DNA of 64,000 nt, from positions 34,163 through 98,162 of IMG/VR virus record IMGVR_UViG_3300037104_000756. One strand, written 5' to 3'. Numbering within the stretch: the stretch's first letter is position 1; each line of letters begins with the position of its first letter. The notes beneath the pieces are model-generated. The model was not told the DNA's origin, did no database searches, and saw only the letters and a program-made list of their open reading frames with translations. Of this stretch, positions 8,414 through 34,175 are shown in pieces. The DNA comes from a virus. A program made the position numbers and the translations under genes.

Positions 8414-8914
8414 ATGGCAAATGAACACGACAACAACCGAAGTTCGGCGCTGACGCCTGAAGCGCTGGCTGTCATCAATACCGCAACATCCAAAGCGGTT
8501 CAGGAAGCGGTATCTGCTTTGCTGCAGGGATTGATGCCTGCTTTCAAGGATATGGCTGTTACGCCTGAGAAGTTGCGCGAAGCCAACCGTCCGTACGAAG
8601 ACCCTGCGAAACTAAAGCGGGAACTCCGCGAATCATTGAAATCCAAGCAGGATGAAGCAGAAATTACCCGCATGAATGATGCGCGTAAAGCCGCCTGCCC
8701 TCATCTCGACAAGAATGGACGATCATCCATTAACCTCGTGCATAACCAACCAGACCACCAGCCGCGCGGAATTTGCGTAGTGTGTGGTGACTGGATTCAC
8801 CCGAAGGAATGGCGGATCGGACCGGCTGACGAAAAGAATCCGAGAGGTAAAGCGTATCTGGTCGAGCCGCATAAAGATTATCGCGTCGTCATGCAGATTG
8901 ACAGCATGAGCTAG
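8414..8914 (+). CDS. Hypothetical protein with CPH/CxxC zinc motif
   Basis: SD GAGGAG; helical N-half, CPH...CVVC. Confidence 0.65.
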   Translation: MANEHDNNRSSALTPEALAVINTATSKAVQEAVSALLQGLMPAFKDMAVTPEKLREANRPYEDPAKLKRELRESLKSKQDEAEITRMNDARKAACPHLDKNGRSSINLVHNQPDHQPRGICVVCGDWIHPKEWRIGPADEKNPRGKAYLVEPHKDYRVVMQIDSMS

Positions 8915-9001: not shown

Positions 9002-9700
9002 ATGAAGAAATTTCTTTTGGCATTGCTGTTTGTATTGATGAGTTTCGCTCCGCTCGCGCACGCGCAAACGCGCCTGTCGGTCGGTCTTGCTGGTGGAAAT
9101 AACGTGGATAACTTGAGCGTAGGACCAGCGGTCGCTATTGAAGTTCCATTCCTGCGGCATTTCGAATTGGATTTGCGCGACACGTTTTCTCCGTACGAGC
9201 GGCACACGGCATTGGGAACCGGGTATGCCAACATCGTCAAGGGCGGCGGCATTATTTGGTTGACTAAAAGTTTTGGAGTTGTGGGAATCGCCGAGTCTTC
9301 GAGCTACGCGGTAACGCAAGTGTCGAAGAGCGCGGTGTACACCAATGCTGGGGCGATCTATCGGACGTTGTTTTTGGGCGCGCCGACACGCTTTGAATTC
9401 GATTATATCCAGCAATCCAACAACGGCATTACGAACGGCATCGAGACCAGCCACTTTCATGGTGGAGAGTTCAGTATCGATACTCGATTCGGATGCGCGA
9501 AGTCTGCATGCTTGCGCGTGCGAGAGCAGTTGGACATCGGTCGCGTGCTCACTCAAGGCAATCCCGCGTGCGATGGCAACGGAATAACCGACCCTCGATT
9601 CTTACCTTGTCCGCGTGGTTCAGCAATCACAGGTGGTGGTTCTGTGTCGCTGATGTTAGAGTTCCCGCGCAGGAAGGTAATCGAAACTACACCATTCTAA
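9002..9700 (+). CDS. Exported protein, possible outer-membrane beta-barrel
   Basis: Sec signal peptide (AHA|Q), alternating amphipathic strands, terminal Phe. Confidence 0.6.
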   Translation: MKKFLLALLFVLMSFAPLAHAQTRLSVGLAGGNNVDNLSVGPAVAIEVPFLRHFELDLRDTFSPYERHTALGTGYANIVKGGGIIWLTKSFGVVGIAESSSYAVTQVSKSAVYTNAGAIYRTLFLGAPTRFEFDYIQQSNNGITNGIETSHFHGGEFSIDTRFGCAKSACLRVREQLDIGRVLTQGNPACDGNGITDPRFLPCPRGSAITGGGSVSLMLEFPRRKVIETTPF

Positions 9701-9705
9701 GTGGA

Positions 9706-9734
9706 GAGGGGTCTGAATAAGACCCCTATTTTTT
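9706..9734 (+). terminator. Intrinsic terminator
   Basis: AGGGGTCT-GAATA-AGACCCCT followed by a T run. Confidence 0.75.
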
Positions 9735-10164
9735 ATGGACAATCCAATTCCAAAATCGAATTTCAACGCCACGCTTCGCGCGTCCATAAAATTACAGCGC
9801 GCGATGCCTTGTTGCGTGCCTCATTGTCCTAACCATCGATTCGTTGATTTCTATGTTTGTAAGATGCATTTTGTGGAACTCATGGACGCTGCATTTTTGC
9901 GGACGGTGGCTTATGGCTAAAACTGGTCGACCACGAAAATCACAGAAGTGTCCAAAGTGTGGGGAAACTGATTTGACTGCCTTTGCATCCAATCGGACGC
10001 GGCGCGGCGGGCGGCAAGTCTATTGTCGAGACTGTGAGCGCATCCGCCGATTTATCAAATCCGTTAGTTTTGACTGAATGAGATGAATTTTGACTGAAAT
10101 GTTTTGGACTCGGCACTCCATAGGTGTAGAGGCTGAATACCCGCCTCCCTGAAGGTAAAATCCA

Positions 10165-11046
10165 ATGGCGACAGGAACACAAAACGAAATCTATTCAAAC
10201 GCGAATTTCCGCCCTGTGCGGGTTCGTGACTCGATCCAGTTCCTGCGCGGGAACGTCGCTCCGTTTGCGCATGAAGGCAGTGAAGCTGGAGTATCCGCTG
10301 TTGTGGCGACCACTGCTAACCCAGGAGCATATCCTAACACCCCGTTCGTTGTGGGCGTGTTCACTGCGTTTAGCGCGCAGTTCGTTCCTGCGAATATTCG
10401 CCCTATCGATTCCGAAATTCTGTTCAACTATCCCGTCACTCCAGATGAGCGCGGCGGCGGGCTCGGCGTCCAGATTCAAACGAATCCGTTTCCTCTCGGC
10501 GCTCCGACGAACTCAGCGGCTGGTAGCGTGGCGGCGGTTCGCGGAGCGATCACCATCGGCGGCGTCTACACAGGCGCGGATGCGGGCTCAGGCACTTCGA
10601 AGACGGACCCGTCCGTTCTGATTGCAACTACCATCTCGGCTGGATACCTCTACGGCGTCCAGGGTAAAATGATTGTTCGCGGTACGCTCAATGCGGGCGG
10701 CAATTACAGCGCGGCTCTTCAAGGGCAACTTGATTTGTCCGCCGCTGTTTTGGTTGGCTCTCCTTTGCAGGCGCTGTGGCTTGACATGGGCGCAACGGCA
10801 TCGGCTAATATCATCTCGATTCCGATACACATCAATGCGATTACCATCACCAACACAACGGCAGCGGTTATCAATTCGGCGCTGTTGTTTATCGGAAATG
10901 CCGCGAACCTGTTTGACGTGACCGATTTGGCGGCAGGCGGACAACATTTCTATCAGCATACTGGCGCAGGTCTCGGCACCATCGGCACCGACTACTTGGT
11001 TGTGGTGGTGAACGGCGTCACGAAACACATCGCGCTGTACGCATAA
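10165..11046 (+). CDS. Putative virion fibre/spike protein A
   Basis: Gly/Ala/Thr-rich beta protein; paralogue of 11094; downstream of an RGACT promoter. Confidence 0.65.
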   Translation: MATGTQNEIYSNANFRPVRVRDSIQFLRGNVAPFAHEGSEAGVSAVVATTANPGAYPNTPFVVGVFTAFSAQFVPANIRPIDSEILFNYPVTPDERGGGLGVQIQTNPFPLGAPTNSAAGSVAAVRGAITIGGVYTGADAGSGTSKTDPSVLIATTISAGYLYGVQGKMIVRGTLNAGGNYSAALQGQLDLSAAVLVGSPLQALWLDMGATASANIISIPIHINAITITNTTAAVINSALLFIGNAANLFDVTDLAAGGQHFYQHTGAGLGTIGTDYLVVVVNGVTKHIALYA

Positions 11047-11093: not shown

Positions 11094-12620
11094 ATGTCTA
11101 CACAGAATCCTATTTACTCAAACCAGAACTGGCGTCCGTTGAAAGTTCGCGACAGTTTCCAGTTTGTTCGCGGCAATATCTCAGGGTTTGCGCACACGGG
11201 TAGTGAATCAGGCACGTTGGGTGTTATCGGACCTAACAGCACTCCTGGCGCGCACCCTGACGTTCCGTTTGTGATCGGCGTCTACTCCGCTTATGGCGCA
11301 GCGGCACAGCCTGGAAATCTGCGGGCGGTTGACTCTGAACTTCTCTTTAATTATCCAGGGAGCACCTCAATTACGGTGAACCCGACAGGTATTGACGGCA
11401 CTCCCACAACGCCGAATACGGCATCCTCAAGTATCGTAGCCGTACGCGGCGCGATCACCATCGGCGGTATCTATACAGGCGCGACGGCAGGAACAGGTAC
11501 TGCGGTCGTAGACCCATCACGCACGACCCCCACAACTATCGTGGGCTCGTCCTATCTTTACGGGGTGCAGGGTAAGGTTGTGCTCAACGGCGGTCTCGCC
11601 AATACAGGAGGGAACGGCATCATCGTTACCGGACTGCAAGGGCAACTCGACATTTCACACACTACCGTCATTTCAAGTCCCCTGACCGCAGGCTGGTTTG
11701 ATATCGGCGCATCGGCATCGGCGGCTCTTATCGCTTCGTGGGTTCCAGGTTCTGCTACTGGACTTGACGCTCAACTTGGCGTGGCAGCAAAATATGGTAT
11801 CCTTGCCGCTGCGGGAATCACAAACACAGGCTCTACGGTAGTCGCTGCTCCTGCGGTTATTGGTTCTTTCCCAACTACAACGATTACGTTTGACGGCGGC
11901 ACCGCGACGGTGGACAACATTGACGCGGCGGCAGCCCAAGTGGCTGCGCACGCGGCTTACCTTCACTACTCTGGATTGGCGTTCACTTCTCTGGGCGGCG
12001 CTCTGGACCTATCCACCGCCTTCAGCGGGTCCAACATCGTCACTCCCGGGAACTACAGTTTCGGTGCGGCAACCTGCTCCTTGGGTCTCGTCCTGAACGG
12101 ACCTGGAACATACATCTTCAAGGGTTCTTCAACGATCAATTTGGCTTCTGGTCAGTCCATAACTTTTTCGGGTGGCGCAACGTTGGCTAACACCACTGTT
12201 ATTTGGTTGGTGGGGTCGTCCTTCACTTCCGTGGCGACTTCGAACATGGTCGGGACTATTCTTGCGGACACATCCATCACCCTCGAGGGCGGCACTCTTC
12301 AGGGGCGCGCGTTTGCGGGCGTCGTGACTAGCTCGGGAGCAGTTACTATCGCTGCCGCAAACAACGTGACGGTTTCTTTTAGTCCGCCGACACCCGCGAC
12401 AGGCGGACCGACATTTATCGACATCACCACGCTGTACAACACGACGGCTGCGGTTATCAACTCAGCCTTCCGTATTATCTCGAATTCGACCTTTCTCTTT
12501 GATCTGAGCAGCAACTCAGGCAGCCCATGGCTGACCACTGGAGTTTTGTCCAGTCAGACGAAGAAAATAGCTGTGAACGTAGACGGAGTGACATACTACA
12601 TTCCACTATACGCAGCCTAA
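11094..12620 (+). CDS. Putative virion fibre protein B with inserted DUF3494 ice-binding-like domain
   Basis: Paralogue of 10165 plus an insert LGVAAKYGILAAAGITNTGST...PGNY...YIFK...GGA..N.VIWLVGSS...GTILADTSITL..GR. Confidence 0.85.
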   Translation: MSTQNPIYSNQNWRPLKVRDSFQFVRGNISGFAHTGSESGTLGVIGPNSTPGAHPDVPFVIGVYSAYGAAAQPGNLRAVDSELLFNYPGSTSITVNPTGIDGTPTTPNTASSSIVAVRGAITIGGIYTGATAGTGTAVVDPSRTTPTTIVGSSYLYGVQGKVVLNGGLANTGGNGIIVTGLQGQLDISHTTVISSPLTAGWFDIGASASAALIASWVPGSATGLDAQLGVAAKYGILAAAGITNTGSTVVAAPAVIGSFPTTTITFDGGTATVDNIDAAAAQVAAHAAYLHYSGLAFTSLGGALDLSTAFSGSNIVTPGNYSFGAATCSLGLVLNGPGTYIFKGSSTINLASGQSITFSGGATLANTTVIWLVGSSFTSVATSNMVGTILADTSITLEGGTLQGRAFAGVVTSSGAVTIAAANNVTVSFSPPTPATGGPTFIDITTLYNTTAAVINSAFRIISNSTFLFDLSSNSGSPWLTTGVLSSQTKKIAVNVDGVTYYIPLYAA

Positions 12621-12708
12621 AAAGTTCTTGGCTTGGGGGTGTGACCAACGCATCCCCATCACCTTGATTTTGTACCAGAAGTAAAATCTACGTTTGGAGG
12701 AAATAGTA

Positions 12709-12921
12709 ATGAGCACAACACCAGGGTTGAACGCAATTCAATTAATCGAACAAGAGATTGGGAATTTTCTCAAGCAGCGTGAACAAGCGATTGCGAACGT
12801 TCATGCGGTCGACGGCGCAATTCAGGCTGCCCAGCACCTCGTAGCGAAGCTGAAAGCCGAAGCTGCGAAGGCTGAAGTTGAGGTTGAGAAGGTCATCGAG
12901 TTAGTTAAAAAGGAACTGTAG
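12709..12921 (+). CDS. Small coiled-coil protein (possible fibre chaperone)
   Basis: SD GGAGG; heptad pattern; follows the fibre genes. Confidence 0.55.
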   Translation: MSTTPGLNAIQLIEQEIGNFLKQREQAIANVHAVDGAIQAAQHLVAKLKAEAAKAEVEVEKVIELVKKEL

Positions 12922-13062: not shown

Positions 13063-13644
13063 ATGAAGTTCTATTCATATCTCTGGCTTCGGGACGACGG
13101 AACGCCGTATTATGCGGGGAAGGGTACGGGTCGAAGAGCGTTTCGCAGTGCGGGACATGGGGTGCACTGTCCTCCAGATCGCACTCGGGTCATAGTCTAC
13201 CCTGTGATGAGTGAAGCGGAAGCTTTTGATTTAGAAATGACGTTGATTGCATGGTACGGCAGAAAAGATATCGGTACCGGGTGTTTGCGGAATTTAAGCG
13301 GGGGTGGAGAGGGTCCGACACTATCCGTTGCGCATCGAAAGAAACTGAGCGAAGCCCACATGGGGCATGTTTCATCCCGCAAAGGGAAAAAATTATCGGA
13401 GAAAGAAAAACAGAATCTCAAGGGGTGGGCTAAGGGGCACATCCCGTGGAACACAGATAAGATGGGCGGTTCTTGGTCTCAGGCTCGAAGAGATTCGTTT
13501 GAGCGGCGAGGCGTATCAGAACAAACTCGCCAAAAGCAGCGGCTGGCGAAATTAGGAAACAAGAATCGATTGGGCGGAAAAAAATATGAACTTCAACCTC
13601 GTGCCTTCGGTGAACCAATCCACAACCATCCAAGCAATGGCTGA
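13063..13644 (+). CDS. GIY-YIG family homing endonuclease with NUMOD3 motifs
   Basis: FYSYLW...PYYAGKGTGRRA, E..LIAWYGR, LRN..GGEG, KGKKLSEK; overlaps the next gene by 59 nt. Confidence 0.88.
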   Translation: MKFYSYLWLRDDGTPYYAGKGTGRRAFRSAGHGVHCPPDRTRVIVYPVMSEAEAFDLEMTLIAWYGRKDIGTGCLRNLSGGGEGPTLSVAHRKKLSEAHMGHVSSRKGKKLSEKEKQNLKGWAKGHIPWNTDKMGGSWSQARRDSFERRGVSEQTRQKQRLAKLGNKNRLGGKKYELQPRAFGEPIHNHPSNG

Positions 13645-14980
13645 TCAACTCCGAATTCACACAAAGCTCCAGAACTTTTTTTCGGTCGGCGGTATTGATG
13701 GTCAACCCATGTTGCGCATTGCCGACAACGTGCAACAAATGTTGCTGACACGTCGCATGCCGTGGAAATTCAATCGCGTAAACATGGGCTCGAACAATCC
13801 AGCAGTCAATCCCCACTTTTTCATGACTCAGCAAGGTTTCCAAGATTTTAAGTTCGCTGGTGCGTCCTGCTTCGCGCTAATCAATAGCGTGACTCCTGGC
13901 GGTCAGCTTCCTGCGGGTGGTGCTGGGGTTGACCTAAATCCGGGCGTGTACCAGAACGGAAACGCAAAGGTGAACTATGGGACGTTCAACGGGGGAAACT
14001 CCTATGGACCTACGGGGAACTGGCAAACGGCTGGTATTATTTTTAATCCTGGGGCTGGCACTTTTACTGTGCAATTTCTTGATCCGCATCCGTTTCAAAT
14101 TGGAAACATTGGCACATCGCAAATTTTGATCGCGGGGGTTGTAAACCCCGCGTACAACAGCACGTTCACGTACAACCAGCTTTCGCAAACCAGTAAATGG
14201 ATTAACAGCTACACACTGCTCGCGATTCCTGACAATTTCCATATCGTGCTGCAGGGCACTCCTGGTCATTTCGGAGCCATCAGTACGATTTCAGCTTCAG
14301 GCACTGTGACAACCGTGTTGGTCCCGAATTCTATGACTCCCGGGGGCATCATGACGTTCACGGGGATCGGCACAAACACGGCGCTGAATGGTTTAAGTGT
14401 CACATTGTTGACCGCAACATCCACTACGGTAACATTTACGACACCTACGGGCGTGACGATCACCAATGGCGCGGATAATGGAACCATATACGCGGCTCCT
14501 TCAGGCGCACCTGGGATTTGGAATTTGGGATGGGTAGAAGCGGCGGCGCTGGTCGACATCAACAATCCTAGTTTTCCCCTGCCCGTCACTCCTGTGGACG
14601 CGGTACACCGCATTGCACCTGAATACACTTCGACGGGAGATAGCATCTCTCTGTCGTGCGAGATTGATTACGGCAATGGCGTGGTAATGTTTCGTCTGTC
14701 GCAGCCTGTGAGCACATATCCTTTTGCGTTCACTGTCGTCTATCAAGCGAAGGCACCGAAGTTCACGAGTGGGCGAAGTATCTTTCAGTTTCCAGATGAT
14801 TTGTCGTATGTGCTGTTCGAGCTAATGTTGTGGCAAGGCATGCGATTCGCGTACGGCATTACGGCGGCAGAGACGCAGGCTCAGATGCAGATGGCTGCGC
14901 TGGCTCTGCAGAATGCGCTTGCTAGCGAGGACCGCGAAGACAACATCATGGGCTTAACTCCCAGTTTCACATTGATGTAG
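13586..14980 (+). CDS. Putative head-tail adaptor / tail tubular A-like protein with large beta insertion
   Basis: Helical N-terminus ending MPWKFNR, helical C-terminus (FPDD...ALASEDRE), position in the tail module. Confidence 0.5.
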   Translation: MNFNLVPSVNQSTTIQAMADQLRIHTKLQNFFSVGGIDGQPMLRIADNVQQMLLTRRMPWKFNRVNMGSNNPAVNPHFFMTQQGFQDFKFAGASCFALINSVTPGGQLPAGGAGVDLNPGVYQNGNAKVNYGTFNGGNSYGPTGNWQTAGIIFNPGAGTFTVQFLDPHPFQIGNIGTSQILIAGVVNPAYNSTFTYNQLSQTSKWINSYTLLAIPDNFHIVLQGTPGHFGAISTISASGTVTTVLVPNSMTPGGIMTFTGIGTNTALNGLSVTLLTATSTTVTFTTPTGVTITNGADNGTIYAAPSGAPGIWNLGWVEAAALVDINNPSFPLPVTPVDAVHRIAPEYTSTGDSISLSCEIDYGNGVVMFRLSQPVSTYPFAFTVVYQAKAPKFTSGRSIFQFPDDLSYVLFELMLWQGMRFAYGITAAETQAQMQMAALALQNALASEDREDNIMGLTPSFTLM

Positions 14981-15029: not shown

Positions 15030-15155
15030 CAACTGGGAAATCAGTTTGCCAAAGGTGTGAAGCACACCGAAGAATGGAAAGCGACACGCAGTGCCCAGCA
15101 GAAGAAGTGGTGGGCTGAGTGGCGGGCAAAGAGGGTAGCTATATCATCCAATTAA
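15030..15155 (+). pseudogene. NUMOD-like homing endonuclease remnant
   Basis: Short frame QLGNQFAKGVKHTEEWKATRSAQQKKWWAEWR with no nuclease domain. Confidence 0.5.
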
Positions 15156-16405
15156 TTAACGGATTTCCCCAGGGACCGAACGCGCTTATTGTGCCGAACG
15201 GTTCAATTTCTTTTTCTCTTAACGTGGATGCGACGGTGGTCGCTGCGCCGTACGGTTTTGTTTGCGCAGATATCCCTGTCGTATTTCAGTTCGACGCCAC
15301 GGGAGCGTTGATTCAGCCCGCAAAGTTGTGGAGTAACGCAGAGTTAAATCCACAACTGTCATCAACACTTTTGGGAACATATTATTTGGTTACGTTTTAC
15401 GATCAAGATGGCGCGCGTCTGAATAAGTCGCCTATGTGGTGGCAGTTTCCAGAAGCCGCAAACGCAACCGTAGATATTAGCGGTATGGTTCCGTACGCGA
15501 CCGTAGGAGGCAATGTGATTTTTTATCCAACATCTTTTGCGATTGGTTCGATTCCGACTCCCAGTCTGACGACCCTCGGCGGCATATTTGCAAATGCAGG
15601 TCTGTTGCATGAAGTTGTGATCGGCATCAATACCGACGGCACTCTGGCGTTCGGCTTTCTTCCTCCACCTACCCTTACGACCCTCGGCGGCGTATTTGCA
15701 AATGCAGGTGTCGCTGGTCAGTTTATCACCGCGATCAATACAGACGGGACTGTTACGCTCGGGACCCCAACAGGCAGCATCACAGGTACGATATCAGCAA
15801 ATCAAATTGCTTTTGGTAGCGCGTCAAACATTCTGGCTGGTAGCGCCAACTTTACGTGGACGAACTCCACGCAAGTGTTGAACATCATTGGAAAAAATGG
15901 ATCAGGAAACGTCGTCATCTTAGACGCCTCTGCTTTGGTGGGCGGGACTGATCACGCGCTTACCATTATTAAAGCGGATTCCGGCGACTTTAATGTCGTC
16001 CATTTCGTCTCAAACCCATCGACCGGCAACGTTGATTTGCAGATGGCAAACGGGCAGTTCAGGATTAATGTAGCCAACGGGGTTGGTATTTTGGAGATAG
16101 ACACCAATATTCTTTCCTATCTTACGACGGTCTCTGGGGGGCAGTTTGTAGCTGGGTGTAGTAGCAATTCCGCCGGTTTTCCGAGTTTAAATTATGTGTT
16201 CGATACTGCCCTCCTTCGGATCGGTGGGTTGATTCTGTCTCAGGTTGCGACCCCCACAACGATTACAGGTCAAATCGGGTTTGGAACGACACTGGACACG
16301 TCTGCGACGGCAGGCAGCAACGGAGATGTTCCGGCTCAAGTTGTTGGCTACCTAGTGTTTGACATCGCAGGCACAAAGTTTAAGTTGCCGTACTACGCGG
16401 CATAA
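15119..16405 (+). CDS. Putative tail fibre protein
   Basis: PTLTTLGG(I/V)FANAG repeats; C-terminal YLVFDIAGTKFKLPYY resembles the ends of fibres A and B; start uncertain. Confidence 0.65.
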   Translation: MAGKEGSYIIQLINGFPQGPNALIVPNGSISFSLNVDATVVAAPYGFVCADIPVVFQFDATGALIQPAKLWSNAELNPQLSSTLLGTYYLVTFYDQDGARLNKSPMWWQFPEAANATVDISGMVPYATVGGNVIFYPTSFAIGSIPTPSLTTLGGIFANAGLLHEVVIGINTDGTLAFGFLPPPTLTTLGGVFANAGVAGQFITAINTDGTVTLGTPTGSITGTISANQIAFGSASNILAGSANFTWTNSTQVLNIIGKNGSGNVVILDASALVGGTDHALTIIKADSGDFNVVHFVSNPSTGNVDLQMANGQFRINVANGVGILEIDTNILSYLTTVSGGQFVAGCSSNSAGFPSLNYVFDTALLRIGGLILSQVATPTTITGQIGFGTTLDTSATAGSNGDVPAQVVGYLVFDIAGTKFKLPYYAA

Positions 16406-16451: not shown

Positions 16452-19400
16452 ATGGCTAGAAAAGTATCGCAGAGCGACCCCGCGCTCGCCATCGAATTTT
16501 TCCTATCTGGCTTCTATACCCACCGCAGCCAGTTGTTCGCTCCCTATAAAGGGATCGGAGTTAATGTGGTGTCGTTCCACGATCCTGTGATCGCGGGAGA
16601 CAACATGGAGGACACCGATCTTTTTGAATGGCAACGCCGCCCCGGGTTTTCGATATTTTGTGCGCAACCTTTGGCTGACTTGGAGGTTGTAAACCAGTTT
16701 GATTCGAGTCGCAATCTGAAGGGTGTTGTAGTTCCGTGGGTTGATACGAATCAACGCTGGGCGACCTTCTCTCCTACATCCATTACTACAATCGCGGTTA
16801 AGACCACACCTCAGCAGGGGTATGTCAGCACGATTGGAAACATGACATATTTCTCTGATGGCGCGTCCGCTGATCTCTATAAATTTGATGGCACTAAGCT
16901 GAGTGCATGGGGTCTTGCGGCACCGACAATCGCCCCTGTGTCTTCAGGTATGGGTTTCTGGCAGCCGTTTACCAGACTCCAACTCGGCAACTCAATTCTC
17001 GACCCTAACGGCGATGTGGAGTCGGTCACTGCGATTTTAATTCCATCTGGCTCCTTTGAATCTCCAACACTTGCAACTACGAAAGCGCTGGGCGGCAGTC
17101 TCACGCAGACATGGACATATGATCCTGTTAACGGAGGATATTTTGTCCAGATGGGGTATCGCCTCCTGCAGCAGGGGCATAGCAATAGCTTGAGCACCTC
17201 GACAATCTTCACGTTTCCAAACCCAATCGTGATAGGAGATGTGGTTGTTTTGACATTCGGTCAGGGAAATACAGATGTTATTCCGACCGTGGTTTCGGTG
17301 ACAGACAGCCTTGGCAATATCTATACACAACAGGCAACTCGCGTTGGAGCTTTTGCTGGCGGCGGCGGGCATACATTCTATTCTACTGCATGGGTGTGGA
17401 CCGCTCCTGTAACGGTTGGAGGGGCATGCACCGTAACCGTGCAGGTTAGTATCCCCGGTTTCGGTGGTCTTCAAGTTCTCGCGCATGAGTTTTCAGGAAT
17501 CAGCGCCACGATTTCCACCAGCGCGACGAACTATGCGGTTAACGTTGGCTCGTTGAACACCGGCACGGTGACGTTTGGTGGTGCAGATCATCTTGTGGTC
17601 AGTTCATTGTTGCTGTTTAGCACGGGACCCGGTTCCGCACCGCTAGATTATCCCAATGGCGTTTCAAATATTTCTGGCGAGTGGCAACTCTATGATGCGT
17701 TCGCAGGGCACACATCCCCGCAATCTCCGACATGGGGCATTCCAGCGGCAAACGGGCAAGCTCTCGGCATTAGCGTTGTATTTCCCATCACCACACTTGT
17801 GACTGGATACTCCCCATGGCTATTCTTAGGTAGTCTCCCTCTTAACATCCCAGTTGGTGCGACGATCTTGGGAGTACAAGTCAGCATTCCAAAGCGGAAC
17901 GAGTCTGGCGTCGGCGCGGTGATAGACCACTCCGTGACTCTTTTTATTGGGGGAGCCGCCACAGGTACGGGGCTTGCATCGGCTGCCGCATGGTCTCCTT
18001 CGGGATACGCGACCGAAATTTACGGCGGTCCTGACAATGTATTAGGACGATGGGGATTCACACCTACGGCGGCGCAGTTGAACGTTAATGGCACCAGCGG
18101 ATTCGGAGTAGGCATCTCGGCAGCTATCGTGGATACAACAGGCGGTTCTGTCGTGCCCGAGGTTGGGTTTGATAGCCCGAACCAACCCACAGTCACGGTC
18201 TATTTCAAGCAGGCGAGCGGATTTTCTGGACCTGGAATAACAGGCGCGAACGAACCGATTTGGCCTACAGCAATCGGCAATGTGGTTAACGACGGCGGTT
18301 TGACGTGGACGAATTACGGACCTATTCAGACATGGTTTCCTGTGACGGGATACCCTACGCCAGTTGTTGTTCTGGATATTAATGGTAATTTGCAACTCAG
18401 CACATATCTCGCTAATCCGGTCCCAGCATGGGATGTCGCTGTTGGGTACACTACGGGACAGATTGTATATTTTGGAGGTCAGTATTGGTTGAGTGTTTTC
18501 AGTGGAACCAACACGGGAGTCGTTCCGTCGACGCTCTATGCGACAACGGGAACCACCACGGTTCCGTATTGGGTGCTCACAACCACGCCGTTGGTGACAG
18601 GATTGACACCGCCCGTATGGAACACCACCATCGGGGGACCCACCACGGACGGATCGTATACGTGGACAAATATCGGACAGGGCACTGGCTTGGCGTTTGT
18701 TGGGTACGCATATGTTTATGGTTTCCGCACGATTTATGGGCATCTCACGACATCGAGTCCATTTTCGAATAATACTGGCGCAATTCTCGGACCGTTGAAT
18801 GGGACGATCACGAGTTATAACATAACCTACGGAGCGCGGGTTACTAGCGTGGCTTTTGTGGGGAACAACAACTTCGTGCCAGGGAACATATTCACTGTGA
18901 GTGGGTTGACGCAGCAACCAGTGGGGCTGACGCTCAATAATTTAGATTTTACGGTGGTGTCCGCCACTCCATCATCGACATTTCCTTTGACGGCTACTCA
19001 AGTGAGTGGCAGCACGCTGCTCACTGTTACGGCGGTAAATAACCTTGTTGTAGGACAAACGGTCACTTTTAGCGGCGTGAGCACAGATACGTTTTTGAAT
19101 GGAATCACTGTGACGGTTCTTGCCGGGGTGACCGCCACACAATTTACAGCCACGATTCCGACGCATGCTAATTACGGACCAACAACCGAGACGGGTATTG
19201 TTATCGCCAATGGCAGCTATATCGCCACAACCCAGTTGGCGGGGACCGGCGTGAGTGGTGTGATTCTGGATGCGGGGGAAGCTATGCCTCTGCGGTCCAC
19301 CATCACTGGAGCCGGAACTGCATCGCCGCTTTGCAACTCTACGGCATCAATCTCTGCCGTGAGTGTGACTGCCAATATTGTGACGATCACCGCCAGCAAT

Positions 19401-21362
19401 AACTTTCAACCTGGACTCTGGGTAACGTTGACAGGATTCACAACCGCGCTCATCTTTAATAACCAGCAGTTTCAGGTTATCTCGGTGGATAAATCCATAG
19501 GCGTCCAGAACACCTCTTTCCAAGTGTATTTTGAGACTCCGAATTACGGCACAACTGCGGTTCCGATAGCGGAGACAGGAACAGCAACGTTCAATGCCAT
19601 CGAAATATATCGCTTGAGCGACGGCGGCGGTTCCTATTTGTTTGATGGTGCCGTGACGAATCCAGGCACGAGTATGTTTCTGTTTAACGATTTTGTCCCC
19701 GATTCAGACTTAGACATTCTTCTGGTTGCGCCGCTGGCGCATCAAAACGATCCGCCTCCAGGCGCGCCAGGGTCTTCCATCACTCCAACTGGCAACCTCA
19801 CGGCATATTGGAATGGTCGTCTCTGGATGATCGTTGGAAACTACGTGTACTTCGATGCGGGACCTGATTGCGAAAACGGCATTTCCCAAGAGTCATGGCC
19901 TCCCGCAAATCGGTTCCTATTTTCAGGACCTGCGTTTAATTTGGTTAAGACGGCGGATGGCTTAGGCTTGCTTGTCCAATTGGCTGATCGCTTTAATGTG
20001 ATTCTTGGCGGTCCCGAAACCATCAGCTTCTATCCATCAGACGCCCTCGACAATTTTGGAATCTCAAATCCCAACGCGATTTTTCGCGACGGATCGATCA
20101 TTGGTTTGTTTACGACGCAGAAACAATATTTTGAATTGCTTGGCAGTCAGAAGAATGAAATCGGCGAGCATATTGCCGACTATCTGACTGCTAATTTCGA
20201 TCCCGCAAAATCCTATGTGACTATGCACCGTAACGGGCTCGATGTTGGTATGTTTATCAGTAACGGTGTGGATCAAGTGCTTCGATTTGGAAGCAACATC
20301 GCTGCATGGAGCGTTCCTGCATTTCCATCTTTCGGTGCGGGCGCGATGCGGTCGATTGAAACTTCAGTAGGTATTACGACTCTGATGATTGCCGCGCCTG
20401 CGGGCGGGGCTACGACCGTGGTGGGTCCAGCAAATCCCACTTCAGGTACGAGTGCGGGGGTTGGAACTCCGTGGATTAATCCTAACAACATTACTGTTGG
20501 GAACCCGACAACCTACTCAACGGTCACTTTTACGGTGGCGGGCACATCGGCAGCGTTGCGCGCGTCGACATACGCGGTATCAATTCCCAACACTGCAAGT
20601 GTGCAGGGAATTCAAGTCTCGATTGTAGGAAAGCAGTCTGAGACATCTGGGGATTTGACTCTGAACATTACGCCGACCAATCCGGCAATCGGAGCCGAGA
20701 CGCATAATTTTTCATTTGGATTGACCAACACGACGGTATTATTTGGTAGCTCGACGGATTTGTGGGGTATGCCGTGGAGTACACCCCTTGGCGCGGGAGG
20801 GGTCAGCTTTGACATCTCTAGCGTGTTTACTGGATTGAGCGGAACGCCTGAAGTGTTTATTTCAGAAGTGCAGATCACGGTCACATATCAAAACCCAGGG
20901 AACTATCTGTACGCTCGCGATGTGAATTCTTGGGGAGACGCTGGCACCTTTGGCGCAAACAACGGCATACCTTATCCGTTGTGCAATATAGTGCTCGGCA
21001 GCATCACCCTATCGCAGCTTGGGGCTCCGCTGCTCCCACTGCAGCATGTTTGTGGATACTTTGATGCAGTCGGAACCTTAAATAACGGCGGGTCATCATA
21101 TCCCAATATTTGGATTTTGCCGAACGAGGTGAACGTTACGAAAGGCATCGGGTTCGTCTACTTGCCCGAGATATTACAAGAACCGCCCGAGGGGCAGAAC
21201 CAGCCGAGTGCTACTATCCTGGCGCTCAGATGGCCTGTGAATATGGCCAATTCCTTTTTGATGAGCCAATTTATCCACCATTGCCAGATTAAAATTCAAT
21301 TCGAGCCCGAGAACGCTCCGAATACGATCAAGGCTATCGCGTTCAAGGAAGACCAATCATGA
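16452..21362 (+). CDS. Large tail protein (nozzle/tubular B-like) with multiple inserted adhesin-like domains
   Basis: N-terminal RRPGF, later YWNGRLW...QESWP typical of nozzle proteins; internal PxW...DG..TWTN.G repeats and a CBM-like W...Y..G.IV.F.G.YW. Confidence 0.6.
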   Translation: MARKVSQSDPALAIEFFLSGFYTHRSQLFAPYKGIGVNVVSFHDPVIAGDNMEDTDLFEWQRRPGFSIFCAQPLADLEVVNQFDSSRNLKGVVVPWVDTNQRWATFSPTSITTIAVKTTPQQGYVSTIGNMTYFSDGASADLYKFDGTKLSAWGLAAPTIAPVSSGMGFWQPFTRLQLGNSILDPNGDVESVTAILIPSGSFESPTLATTKALGGSLTQTWTYDPVNGGYFVQMGYRLLQQGHSNSLSTSTIFTFPNPIVIGDVVVLTFGQGNTDVIPTVVSVTDSLGNIYTQQATRVGAFAGGGGHTFYSTAWVWTAPVTVGGACTVTVQVSIPGFGGLQVLAHEFSGISATISTSATNYAVNVGSLNTGTVTFGGADHLVVSSLLLFSTGPGSAPLDYPNGVSNISGEWQLYDAFAGHTSPQSPTWGIPAANGQALGISVVFPITTLVTGYSPWLFLGSLPLNIPVGATILGVQVSIPKRNESGVGAVIDHSVTLFIGGAATGTGLASAAAWSPSGYATEIYGGPDNVLGRWGFTPTAAQLNVNGTSGFGVGISAAIVDTTGGSVVPEVGFDSPNQPTVTVYFKQASGFSGPGITGANEPIWPTAIGNVVNDGGLTWTNYGPIQTWFPVTGYPTPVVVLDINGNLQLSTYLANPVPAWDVAVGYTTGQIVYFGGQYWLSVFSGTNTGVVPSTLYATTGTTTVPYWVLTTTPLVTGLTPPVWNTTIGGPTTDGSYTWTNIGQGTGLAFVGYAYVYGFRTIYGHLTTSSPFSNNTGAILGPLNGTITSYNITYGARVTSVAFVGNNNFVPGNIFTVSGLTQQPVGLTLNNLDFTVVSATPSSTFPLTATQVSGSTLLTVTAVNNLVVGQTVTFSGVSTDTFLNGITVTVLAGVTATQFTATIPTHANYGPTTETGIVIANGSYIATTQLAGTGVSGVILDAGEAMPLRSTITGAGTASPLCNSTASISAVSVTANIVTITASNNFQPGLWVTLTGFTTALIFNNQQFQVISVDKSIGVQNTSFQVYFETPNYGTTAVPIAETGTATFNAIEIYRLSDGGGSYLFDGAVTNPGTSMFLFNDFVPDSDLDILLVAPLAHQNDPPPGAPGSSITPTGNLTAYWNGRLWMIVGNYVYFDAGPDCENGISQESWPPANRFLFSGPAFNLVKTADGLGLLVQLADRFNVILGGPETISFYPSDALDNFGISNPNAIFRDGSIIGLFTTQKQYFELLGSQKNEIGEHIADYLTANFDPAKSYVTMHRNGLDVGMFISNGVDQVLRFGSNIAAWSVPAFPSFGAGAMRSIETSVGITTLMIAAPAGGATTVVGPANPTSGTSAGVGTPWINPNNITVGNPTTYSTVTFTVAGTSAALRASTYAVSIPNTASVQGIQVSIVGKQSETSGDLTLNITPTNPAIGAETHNFSFGLTNTTVLFGSSTDLWGMPWSTPLGAGGVSFDISSVFTGLSGTPEVFISEVQITVTYQNPGNYLYARDVNSWGDAGTFGANNGIPYPLCNIVLGSITLSQLGAPLLPLQHVCGYFDAVGTLNNGGSSYPNIWILPNEVNVTKGIGFVYLPEILQEPPEGQNQPSATILALRWPVNMANSFLMSQFIHHCQIKIQFEPENAPNTIKAIAFKEDQS

Positions 21363-33477: not shown

Positions 33478-33900
33478 AGTCGAGTTTAAGATCGACACGG
33501 TGGAGGCAGAAATCGTGCCCCAAAAGCTGGTCGTGCAGTTAACACGCGCTGAGCGAGTTCCGTGACGCGAATAGGACGGCGACCTTAAATTACGTTCGTA
33601 TAAAGCCTATGGCTTCTCAGAAAGACGAGGGTTCGACTCCCTCCGAGTCCACCCTGCCACACAGCACGGATGTTCCGACGCCCAAAGGGCTGACGATCTA
33701 ACCACTGTGTGGTACGGTGGGCTCGACTCGGTTTCGATTTTTGAGATAGTGGTGGGGCTACTTCGAACCGTCCTGACAACGACGTTAAAAGAGATCAAAC
33801 CAATAAATGCGATGCCTAAAAAGCTAGCACAGGTGGTTATGTTCGCGCAGCGCCCTGCGGCATTCGTGCCCCAGGCACTCGCGGCATAGTCGCCGGGGGA
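33478..33900 (+). ncRNA. ssrA: Circularly permuted (two-piece) tmRNA
   Basis: T-arm GAGGG-TTCGACT-CCCTC and acceptor 3' strand CGAGTCC-ACC (33627-33653) lie upstream of the 5' strand GGGCTCG (33719), giving G3.U; tag frame 33809-33889 ends in ALAA*. Confidence 0.92.
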
Positions 33901-33931
33901 GGGAGCCCGAAAGGTTCTCTCCTTTCATTTT
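33896..33931 (+). terminator. Intrinsic terminator after the tmRNA
   Basis: GGAGGGAGCC-CGAAA-GGTTCTCTCC then TTTCATTTTT. Confidence 0.75.
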
Positions 33932-33944
33932 TCAGGAGAATTTT

Positions 33945-34175
33945 ATGAGTCATCATTCTTTAGATGGATTCACACCCATCAGTTCGGACCACATTGACGG
34001 TGCAAAGTACAATTCCATGGATCAGAAGCTGACGGTGAGGTTTAAAAACGGGTATGTATATGAAGTTCACGCCGTGTCGCCCAGGGACCACCAAGAATTC
34101 ATGAACGCGCCGTCACAAGGCAAGCACTTTCACACATGCTTCAAGGGAAACTACCACATCGAACGCGTCAAGTAG
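33945..34175 (+). CDS. KTSC domain protein
   Basis: SS..I....Y......L.V.FKNG.VY....V......F.NAPSQGKHF....KG.Y. Confidence 0.85.
   Translation: MSHHSLDGFTPISSDHIDGAKYNSMDQKLTVRFKNGYVYEVHAVSPRDHQEFMNAPSQGKHFHTCFKGNYHIERVK

Follow-up and report, generated by a model that had tools for sequence, protein, structure and literature searches.

A complete DUF3494 (ice-binding-type) domain inserted into a probable virion fibre protein of an uncultured peat phage

ORF B, a protein of 508 aa encoded at 11094..12620 on the plus strand of the 64,000-nucleotide stretch of DNA analyzed here (the window, part of a 98-kb uncultured phage record from a peat metagenome), is a fusion in which a complete DUF3494 domain interrupts the C-terminal domain of an unannotated and, as far as database comparisons indicate, phage-only protein family. 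The module is not confined to ORF B. It has been exchanged among the fibre-like genes of many uncultured phages, and a role as an adhesive surface module is probable. Of the functions considered, we favour that of a virion adhesion module for cell-surface or matrix polysaccharide, in which we place about even confidence, over true ice binding, which we regard as unlikely. To our knowledge, research on DUF3494 has dealt almost entirely with secreted proteins by which cold-adapted microbes resist freezing or adhere to ice, and a full-text literature search gave no paper that treats DUF3494 in phage tail, fibre or structural proteins.

The gene upstream of ORF B, ORF A (10165..11046, plus strand; 293 aa), encodes a paralogue from the same family, referred to here as the base family, that lacks the insert and matches the family profile over its full length. 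The two proteins are collinear, as a preliminary description made from the sequence had proposed: residues 5-209 of ORF A are 52% identical to ORF B (E 4e-60) and the last 74 residues are 41% identical (E 2e-8), and the motifs quoted there as shared are all found in the family alignment. On ORF B the base-family profile matches in two blocks, residues 1-211 and 435-507. Residues 1-211 (11094..11726, plus strand) comprise the N-terminal region and the initial two thirds of the base domain (profile positions 1-164), and are 68% identical to the protein encoded at the related locus L004; residues 435-508 (12396..12617, plus strand) form the last third of the base domain (profile positions 162-235) and end in ...YYIPLYAA. 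Because the profile splits in this manner, the insert can be placed at about residues 212-434 (11727..12395, plus strand), an interval of approximately 223 residues that contains the coordinates 11775-12372 originally given for it. Four more cluster variants of the fusion were found (P0031, P0032, P0033 and P0287). Moreover, the fusion protein is under purifying selection, with a dN/dS between ORF B and its counterpart in L103 of 0.19 overall and of 0.19 within the insert.

The insert begins with a linker, WVPGSATGLDAQ, continues with the DUF3494 domain and closes with a Pro/Thr/Gly linker, SFSPPTPATGGPT. PF11999 (Ice_binding/DUF3494), the profile that the preliminary description had named when it reported a DUF3494 pattern along the whole insert, matches from end to end at 11799..12350 on the plus strand (ORF B residues 236-419), with 56.8 bits (cut-off 28.7; E 3.3e-15) and with 60.2 bits in a six-frame search of the genome. 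The match extends over profile positions 1-202 of 208, so that the domain is complete and not a fragment. ORF B also matches solved ice-binding proteins directly by sequence (4NUH, E 7.8e-8; 3UYV/3UYU, E about 5e-5). A signal peptide for secretion or surface anchoring is typical of DUF3494 ice-binding proteins, although not strictly defining. The preliminary description had seen none, rightly so, since no signal-like hydrophobic stretch is present at the N-terminus of ORF A or of ORF B, which starts MSTQNPIYSNQNW..., and the DUF3494 insert begins at about residue 212, not at the N-terminus.

The DUF3494 fold is characterised by a discontinuous beta-solenoid with a single long alpha-helix as its brace. 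The AlphaFold2 model of ORF B, built on an alignment of 26 sequences, has a pLDDT of 42 overall and of 50-60 in the insert; in this low-confidence model, a helix is predicted at residues 277-290, with strands and a beta-rich solenoid region after it. Residues 301-432 of the same low-confidence model, and only these, aligned by VIA-align with 16 solved DUF3494 chains (Z 6.3-7.5; rmsd 2.4-3.6 Å over 103-121 residues; identity 12-25%), and Foldseek with the ORF B model returned no match at E <=0.001, all E-values being >=0.47. The phage domain thus shares with the solved DUF3494 proteins (FfIBP 4NU2/4NUH, LeIBP 3UYU, EfcIBP 6EIO, Cryosericum IBP 9LHR, ColAFP 3WP9 and TisAFP 3VN3) the full-length profile match, the direct sequence matches and, at the low confidence of the model, the predicted helix followed by a solenoid region. 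Unlike them, it is an internal insert of a phage protein and not a secreted stand-alone protein with a signal peptide; unlike the proven ice binders, to which its identity is low, it is part of a coherent clade of phage modules, with at least 66 unique copies. A contig scan of cellular genomes with the insert alone gave just two distant matches, both in MAGs, at 33-34% identity. According to a passage in PMC11645318, the last coil of the DUF3494 fold lies beside its first one, which makes insertion into a loop feasible.

The base family is itself sizeable. Its profile matches 322 cluster representatives and, in nearly all of the matches listed, the base domain of about 180 residues is C-terminal, in proteins of 200-645 aa with variable N-termini. 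Searches with 108 and with 41 members gave no match in Pfam, PHROG or the PDB sequences, and hence no known fibre family or fold; ORF A itself matched nothing in Pfam or PHROG, the long members matched nothing in the PDB, and tblastn of ORF B and two distant family members against 50,697 GenBank phage records was equally negative. The AlphaFold2 models of ORF A (108 sequences; pLDDT 58) and of ORF B are, because of their pLDDT values, unusable for fold assignment. With the poor ORF A model, a wide VIA-align search reached a best Z of 3.1, to a tailspike depolymerase, and the leads given by the ESM-Atlas, PF09956 and HylP, score 0.78-0.80, below a useful score. Relatives of the family lie between the head-closure and tail-terminator genes in L009 and, in L016, some 1 kb beyond a tail-fibre gene on its downstream side; in L129, the base domain is joined to the N-terminus of the fibre-like protein encoded after the adaptor-like gene (48% identity).

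ORF A and ORF B occupy a variable slot. Its left border is a conserved, Cys-rich gene of 166 aa (8414..8914, plus strand), homologues of which, at 34-77% identity, stand upstream of the slot in L004-6, L023-28, L104 and L108-112; its right border is a conserved small ORF of 75 aa (12694..12921, plus strand), which recurs in 19 related loci with 59-86% identity over its first 48 or so residues and in every case immediately follows the slot. In related phages of about 96-100 kb, the slot is filled by a base protein, by a stand-alone DUF3494 protein of 403-423 aa, by both, or by the fusion. The ORF list places a further item of cargo in the slot of the window, a 232-aa protein with an N-terminal signal-like sequence (9002..9700, plus strand), whose sole homologue among the loci is in L027 (47% identity), and a terminator scan detected a terminator-like hairpin after its gene (9707-9727). 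A promoter-like motif, RGACT-N8-YATAR, follows at 10106..10123 on the plus strand, 42 nt upstream of ORF A. It has 8 matches against 0.42 expected, all on the plus strand; none is directly before ORF B, and the others precede the homing endonuclease, 428-aa and 1636-aa genes described below, as well as other plus-strand genes. Judged by this motif, ORF A and ORF B share a promoter-like signal with the downstream tail-module genes.

Beyond the slot, a homing endonuclease gene of the GIY-YIG/NUMOD3 type (13063..13644, plus strand; PF07460, E 1.2e-6; phrog_15526 and phrog_314) is an insertion between the slot and an adaptor-like gene. The latter codes for a protein of 464 aa (13586..14980, plus strand) whose assignment is weak: PF24175 (SU10_adaptor) scores 23.1 bits, below the cut-off of 27, and 21 bits in one relative. 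The protein is 73-80% identical in relatives, and neither it nor its profile matched anything significant in the PDB. Next comes a 428-aa fibre-like protein (15119..16405, plus strand) with a conserved N-terminus and a variable C-terminus, its N-terminal 140-240 residues being 48-65% identical in relatives with differing C-termini; the homologue in L129 is the one that terminates in the base domain. It ends in ...KFKLPYYAA and was considered as a member of the base family, with which it has only the short ...LPYYAA-type ending in common and no profile match. The giant tail-module protein of 1636 aa (16452..21362, plus strand) has no match in Pfam or PHROG and, after about residue 1335, carries unrelated sequence where its closest relatives carry DUF3494; neither its C-terminal third nor the 428-aa protein gave a significant match in the PDB. 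None of the tail genes of this block has a confident annotation. TerL, an SU10-type portal (above cut-off) and the major capsid protein are encoded elsewhere in the 98-kb record, the major capsid gene about 37 kb from ORF A and ORF B.

The preliminary description took the host protein of the insert to be a probable virion fibre. This is in part upheld: the gene context speaks for it, through the promoter-like motif, the weakly adaptor-like neighbour directly downstream of ORF A and ORF B, the modularity of C-termini and L129, and no match to a known fibre family or fold was obtained. We retain the assignment, for ORF A as for ORF B, as probable. The C-terminal position of the base domain in nearly all matches listed, the L129 chimera and the variable slot show that the build is modular, with a conserved anchor region and an exchangeable distal C-terminal domain. 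Its presence in the virion, its site of attachment, a trimeric state and its ligand we infer. ORF B resembles modular phage fibres such as gp12 and gp13 of SU10, which are long fibres docked on the adaptor (PMC9509320), in that it too adjoins an adaptor-like gene and has a conserved N-terminus and a swappable distal module; likewise, modules have been exchanged between carriers and genomes among its relatives. Unlike known phage fibres, the ORF B family has no sequence or fold match, and the distal module is an ice-binding-type solenoid. A second parallel is offered by the Ig-like display domains, among them T4 Hoc. Like these, the DUF3494 module looks non-essential, being present or absent among relatives, and may bind a general matrix and not a specific receptor, as in the 'adherence to mucus' model for the Ig-like domains of phage capsids and tails; the DUF3494 module differs in fold and can also terminate a fibre or form part of a giant tail-module protein.

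In IMG/VR, carriers of the module amount to 114 stretches in at least 78 loci, with ORFs of 284-2070 aa in which the module is N-terminal, in the middle or C-terminal. A single viral contig may have up to 3 DUF3494 loci, and some genomes hold 2-3 copies in different proteins. In the closest relatives, the giant tail-module protein carries the module within its C-terminal third: the giant protein of L070 is 57% identical to the 1636-aa protein over 824 residues and has the module at residues 790-1020, and that of L063, with an N-terminus 60% identical to the 1636-aa protein, has it at residues 1306-1536. When seven large DUF3494-bearing phage proteins were compared with PHROG, no annotated family was found, and the one match, of unknown function, was outside the module. 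The 66 unique phage copies have a median pairwise identity of 55%, and conservation extends across the whole domain and is not limited to one patch. This conservation in very different carriers fits an unchanging ligand, ice being one such.

We favour the following scenario. ORF B would be a virion appendage expressed late, a fibre or knob near the neck or tail, in which a complete DUF3494 beta-solenoid, with a short flexible linker on either side, interrupts a loop of the C-terminal domain. The insert would be exposed on the particle and serve for adhesion, probably to a common and slowly varying surface (host capsule, slime, cell-wall polysaccharide or the peat matrix), and not to a strain-specific receptor. 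ORF A would be the uninserted paralogue and, as the similarity of the N-terminal regions suggests, may be mounted at the same kind of site. The preliminary description had put forward two functions, adhesion to ice or protection from freeze-thaw damage on the one hand and a fold repurposed for glycan binding on the other, and the data are compatible with both. Our preference for general adhesion comes from the way in which the module has moved between fibre-like proteins and giant tail-module proteins. Against adhesion stand the conservation of the module across carriers and the possibility that the peat sampled freezes seasonally. On the side of the host protein, the adaptor match is below its cut-off and has no PDB support, and the base family has no database match.

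In the case of true ice binding, the displayed domains would grip ice crystal planes, and the virions would be held at ice surfaces or in liquid veins of frozen peat, or be shielded from the damage of ice recrystallisation upon freezing and thawing. A full-length, above-cut-off PF11999 match, best structural and sequence matches that are all to proven ice-binding proteins, a module fairly conserved across unrelated carriers, as for an invariant ligand, and the peat origin of the sample are all in line with it. Identity to the proven ice-binding proteins is only 12-25% in the structural alignments, however, the sequences of DUF3494 proteins offer no signature by which ice binding could be scored, and the family, described as ice-binding and also as substrate-binding or adhesive, includes substrate-binding proteins from non-icy habitats (PMC12337378). 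The composition of the insert (54% T+S+A+G, 4.5% charged residues) is as expected of flat ice-binding faces but is also typical of phage fibres, and the rest of ORF B reaches 43-46% T+S+A+G. More doubtful is the idea that the module itself binds nothing and serves as a rigid spacer or stabilizing block, a solenoid recruited for its adjacent termini and independent folding. The internal position of the module in very long proteins (residues 851-1089 of 2070 and 695-935 of 1597) and a conservation over the whole domain, with no single patch, would suit such an element; in ORF B, however, the module is a side branch from a loop and so cannot lengthen the fibre, in the same slot it forms the main body of the stand-alone proteins of 403-423 aa, and certain genomes have it 2-3 times, each time in another protein.

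Two further readings concern the host protein and the role of the gene. ORF B may decorate the capsid or be a head fibre, instead of a tail or neck fibre, with DUF3494 coating the head in the way of the T4 Hoc Ig-like domains. The nearest named ESM-Atlas cluster, in which 46% of members carry PF09956 (Phage_cement_2), points in this direction with a score of 0.80, as a lead only, as do the position of the L009 relative within a head-neck gene block and, in SU10, gp10, whose gene precedes that of the adaptor and whose product is predicted to be a minor capsid protein or to resemble a head fibre (PMC9509320). Yet no family member matched PF09956 (with E limits of 1 for ORF A and 0.01 for 41 long members), the gene of the major capsid protein lies far away, the base domain of L129 ends a fibre-like gene downstream of the adaptor-like gene and the L016 relative is close to a tail-fibre gene; we therefore rate a place on the head as rather improbable, a little below ice binding. 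Far less probable is an auxiliary gene for the host, whose product would be a cryoprotectant, either serving the cell or set free when it lyses. PF11999 genes in three Arctic vOTUs have been read as cryoprotective auxiliary genes (PMC11515562), and a PF11999 domain on a viral genome is common to both cases; unlike there, the domain is here built into structural-type proteins. ORF B has no signal peptide, its DUF3494 domain lies within a paralogue from a structural-type family confined to phages, its gene shares the promoter-like motif with the tail-module genes, and the same module is found inside proteins of 1100-2070 aa. The Arctic homologues were linked mostly to Synechococcus phage S-SKS1 (PMC11515562), in the genome of which the PF11999 profile found nothing.

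DUF3494 would act here as an exchangeable module of the phage particle surface, which, across at least 78 uncultured viral loci, takes the form of a loop insert, a stand-alone protein of the slot or a portion of a giant tail-module protein. Should its ligand be polysaccharide, as we favour, the known range of ligands of the DUF3494 fold widens, and viral PF11999 genes should be labelled cryoprotective auxiliary genes only with caution. It is unlikely, in our estimate, that the fibres and tails of uncultured soil and peat phages bear domains that truly bind ice; if they do, this would be an adaptation to freezing and thawing at the level of the virus, spread by cassette exchange over at least 78 viral loci of which ORF B is one carrier, and a particle-level phage strategy for frozen soils not previously described. 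In any event, an unannotated phage-only C-terminal domain family, with 322 cluster representatives, together with a clean variable slot, should be useful for studying how phages exchange adhesion modules.

The DUF3494 (Ice_binding) domain of ORF B (11094-12620, + strand, 508 aa) interrupts the C-terminal domain of a phage protein family, the base family, to which the neighboring ORF A (10165-11046, + strand, 293 aa) belongs without an insert. PF11999 aligns to residues 236-419 of ORF B along positions 1-202 of its 208, scoring 56.8 bits (cut-off 28.7), which bears out the ~200-aa DUF3494-like insert placed at 11775-12372 in the preliminary description; a six-frame search of the genome gives 60.2 bits and no other PF11999 match. 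Solved ice-binding proteins are also matched by sequence (4NUH, E 7.8e-8; LeIBP, ~5e-5). Because the family profile breaks into two pieces on ORF B (residues 1-211 and 435-507), the insert comprises ~residues 212-434; short linkers, WVPGSATGLDAQ and SFSPPTPATGGPT, flank it, and T, S, A and G make up 54% of its residues and charged residues 4.5%. The collinear paralogy of the two ORFs proposed earlier holds, with identities of 52% across ~210 residues at the N-terminus and 41% across the final 74; the motifs quoted in its favor are all present in the family alignment, where the short proteins show one clean gap, and both N-termini are without signal-like sequence, as had been noted for ORF B. 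By sequence comparison, ORF A and ORF B did not arise through recent tandem duplication, since the base part of ORF B is 68% identical to the L004-type proteins of related phages as against 52% to ORF A. Relative to the ORF B homologue of L103 (66% protein identity), dN/dS is 0.19 overall, 0.23 for the N-terminal base part, 0.19 for the insert and 0.07 for the C-terminal part, in a comparison that is near saturation (dS ~1-1.8).

AlphaFold2 gave poor models of both ORF B (pLDDT 42) and ORF A (pLDDT 58, from a 108-sequence alignment). Foldseek ranked ice-binding proteins at the top for the ORF B model, yet at E 0.47 or worse. VIA-align of this model to 16 solved DUF3494 proteins (Z 6.3-7.5, rmsd 2.4-3.6 Å; 103-121 residues aligned, within residues 301-432 only) is consistent with the sequence evidence for DUF3494 and adds little to it. 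For the base domain, a wide structure search with the poor model reached Z 3.1 at best.

ORF A has ~30 close relatives, all metagenomic and unnamed, and a base-family profile run against 1.84 billion cluster representatives matched 322 at E <=0.001. Among the matches listed, the base domain forms the last ~180 residues in nearly all; these proteins are 200-645 aa long and their N-termini are unrelated. No base-family member searched matched Pfam or PHROGs, the family profile found nothing among PDB sequences, and three members had no match in 50,697 GenBank phage records; in the ESM Atlas the family falls among nameless clusters that are 93-100% viral. Among 182 proteins, the domain is split by an insert only in the ORF B lineage (P0022, P0031, P0032, P0033, P0287). 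The strongest sign that the base domain may be an exchangeable end module of fibre-like proteins comes from L129, where the homologue of the window's 428-aa fibre-like protein (48% identity across 240 residues) terminates in a base domain (37% identity to ORF A). The 428-aa protein itself (15119-16405, + strand) has a conserved N-terminus and a variable C-terminus and does not match the base-family profile. Its end, KFKLPYYAA, resembles the base-family ends YYIPLYAA and HIALYA, and it contains two TTLGG(I/V)FANAG...INTDGT repeats.

Related phage records, among them near-complete genomes of 96 kb and 100 kb (one has terminal repeats), share a frame of a 166-aa gene, a variable slot, a small ORF (12694-12921; 59-86% identical) and a 464-aa gene (13586-14980; 73-80%). 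Four kinds of slot content occur: the base protein alone (L004/5, L104, L108-112); a stand-alone DUF3494 protein of 403-423 aa alone (L023, L025, L026); such a protein plus the base protein (L006/L024), its module 69% identical to the ORF B insert; or the base protein plus the base::DUF3494 fusion (the window and L103, with L105 a partial copy). Directly after the stand-alone gene, ORFs of 176-182 aa (L023:5037-5585 and L025:7258-7788) resemble the C-terminal non-solenoid domain of its product, which looks like partial duplication. The 166-aa gene (8414-8914, + strand), kept in all relatives, encodes a C-terminal Cys cluster (C...C-x2-C) and has no family match. Within the slot lies the gene for a 232-aa protein (9002-9700, + strand) with a clear signal-like N-terminus, possibly a moron-type envelope protein; among the loci, only L027 has a homologue (47% identity). 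The slot and the 464-aa gene are separated by an inserted GIY-YIG/NUMOD3 homing endonuclease gene (13063-13644, + strand), which overlaps the start of the 464-aa gene by 59 nt. Sub-cut-off matches to SU10_adaptor (23.1 bits for the window gene, and 21 bits in one relative) hint weakly at an adaptor-like product of the 464-aa gene, and a PDB search gave no support; the gene that comes after it encodes the 428-aa fibre-like protein.

The motif RGACT-N8-YATAR occurs eight times (0.42 expected), always on the + strand and just upstream of a + strand gene (10106, 13038, 14980, 16409, 21876, 28300, 32079 and 60897), and probably represents a phage-specific, perhaps late, promoter class. ORF A has a copy 42 nt upstream and ORF B has none; the 428-aa and 1636-aa genes are among those with a copy of their own. 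A strong terminator-like hairpin (9707-9727), which follows the 232-aa gene, lies upstream of the ORF A/ORF B unit; from this arrangement the two ORFs look co-transcribed and co-regulated with the tail-module genes.

Scanning IMG/VR for the DUF3494 module returned 114 stretches in 78 loci, three of them on one 223-kb contig, in ORFs of 284-2070 aa that carry it N-terminally, in the middle or C-terminally. Seven large carriers compared with PHROGs had no annotation, the single match being to a function-unknown family outside the module. L063 and L070, the closest relatives, have downstream genes syntenic with the window and carry the module within the C-terminal third of their homologue of the 1636-aa protein (16452-21362, + strand); the window's protein is unrelated in sequence at this place. 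In one relative fragment, both the slot and the giant protein contain a module. Residues ~1048-1313 of the window's giant protein form a ~265-residue domain that, in at least five further giant proteins of phages (L041, L051, L068 and L086; L074 is similar), stands directly before the module; in the window, unrelated sequence follows it.

These facts fit a particle-surface adhesion module that would have been grafted into a fibre-end domain. Published work credits DUF3494 with ice binding as well as with substrate binding or adhesion, in habitats with and without ice (PMC12337378), and we put the chance that the module serves non-ice adhesion at about even; true ice binding seems rather unlikely, and a passive structural role decidedly more so. 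Three Arctic viral contigs with PF11999 were interpreted as carrying cryoprotective auxiliary genes (PMC11515562), a reading that the structural embedding of DUF3494 in ORF B opposes and that we regard as highly improbable here; no paper describing DUF3494 in structural proteins of phages emerged from full-text literature searches. As a separate matter, we consider it unlikely that the carrier is placed on the capsid and not on the neck or tail. Among distant relatives, L009, a complete 49-kb phage, has its base-family gene flanked by head-closure and tail-terminator genes, and in L016 the gene lies ~1 kb downstream of a tail-fibre gene.

The window covers bases 34163-98162 of an IMG/VR virus record of 98,162 bp that is an estimated 98% complete, and its DNA is also present in peat metagenome runs. 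At its start the genome encodes a large terminase, a major head protein (phrog_1357) and a portal of SU10 type (PF23899, 51.9 bits, cut-off 30); the window encodes ThyX, ribonucleotide reductase, a GH108 endolysin and GroEL, besides many large genes without annotation. ARAGORN also predicted a permuted tmRNA gene (33562-33980, + strand; tag peptide ending PQALAA), and several endonuclease VII-type genes lie in the upstream part of the genome (L002: 7372, 9583, 17343). Pairwise identity among the 66 unique modules has a median of 55%, and such moderate conservation in carriers that differ greatly suggests a target that is common and varies slowly; ice, some widespread polysaccharide and the peat matrix are candidates. 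The instance described here is a 98-kb peat phage of the short-tailed type, with an SU10-like portal, in which the picture of slot exchange is clear.
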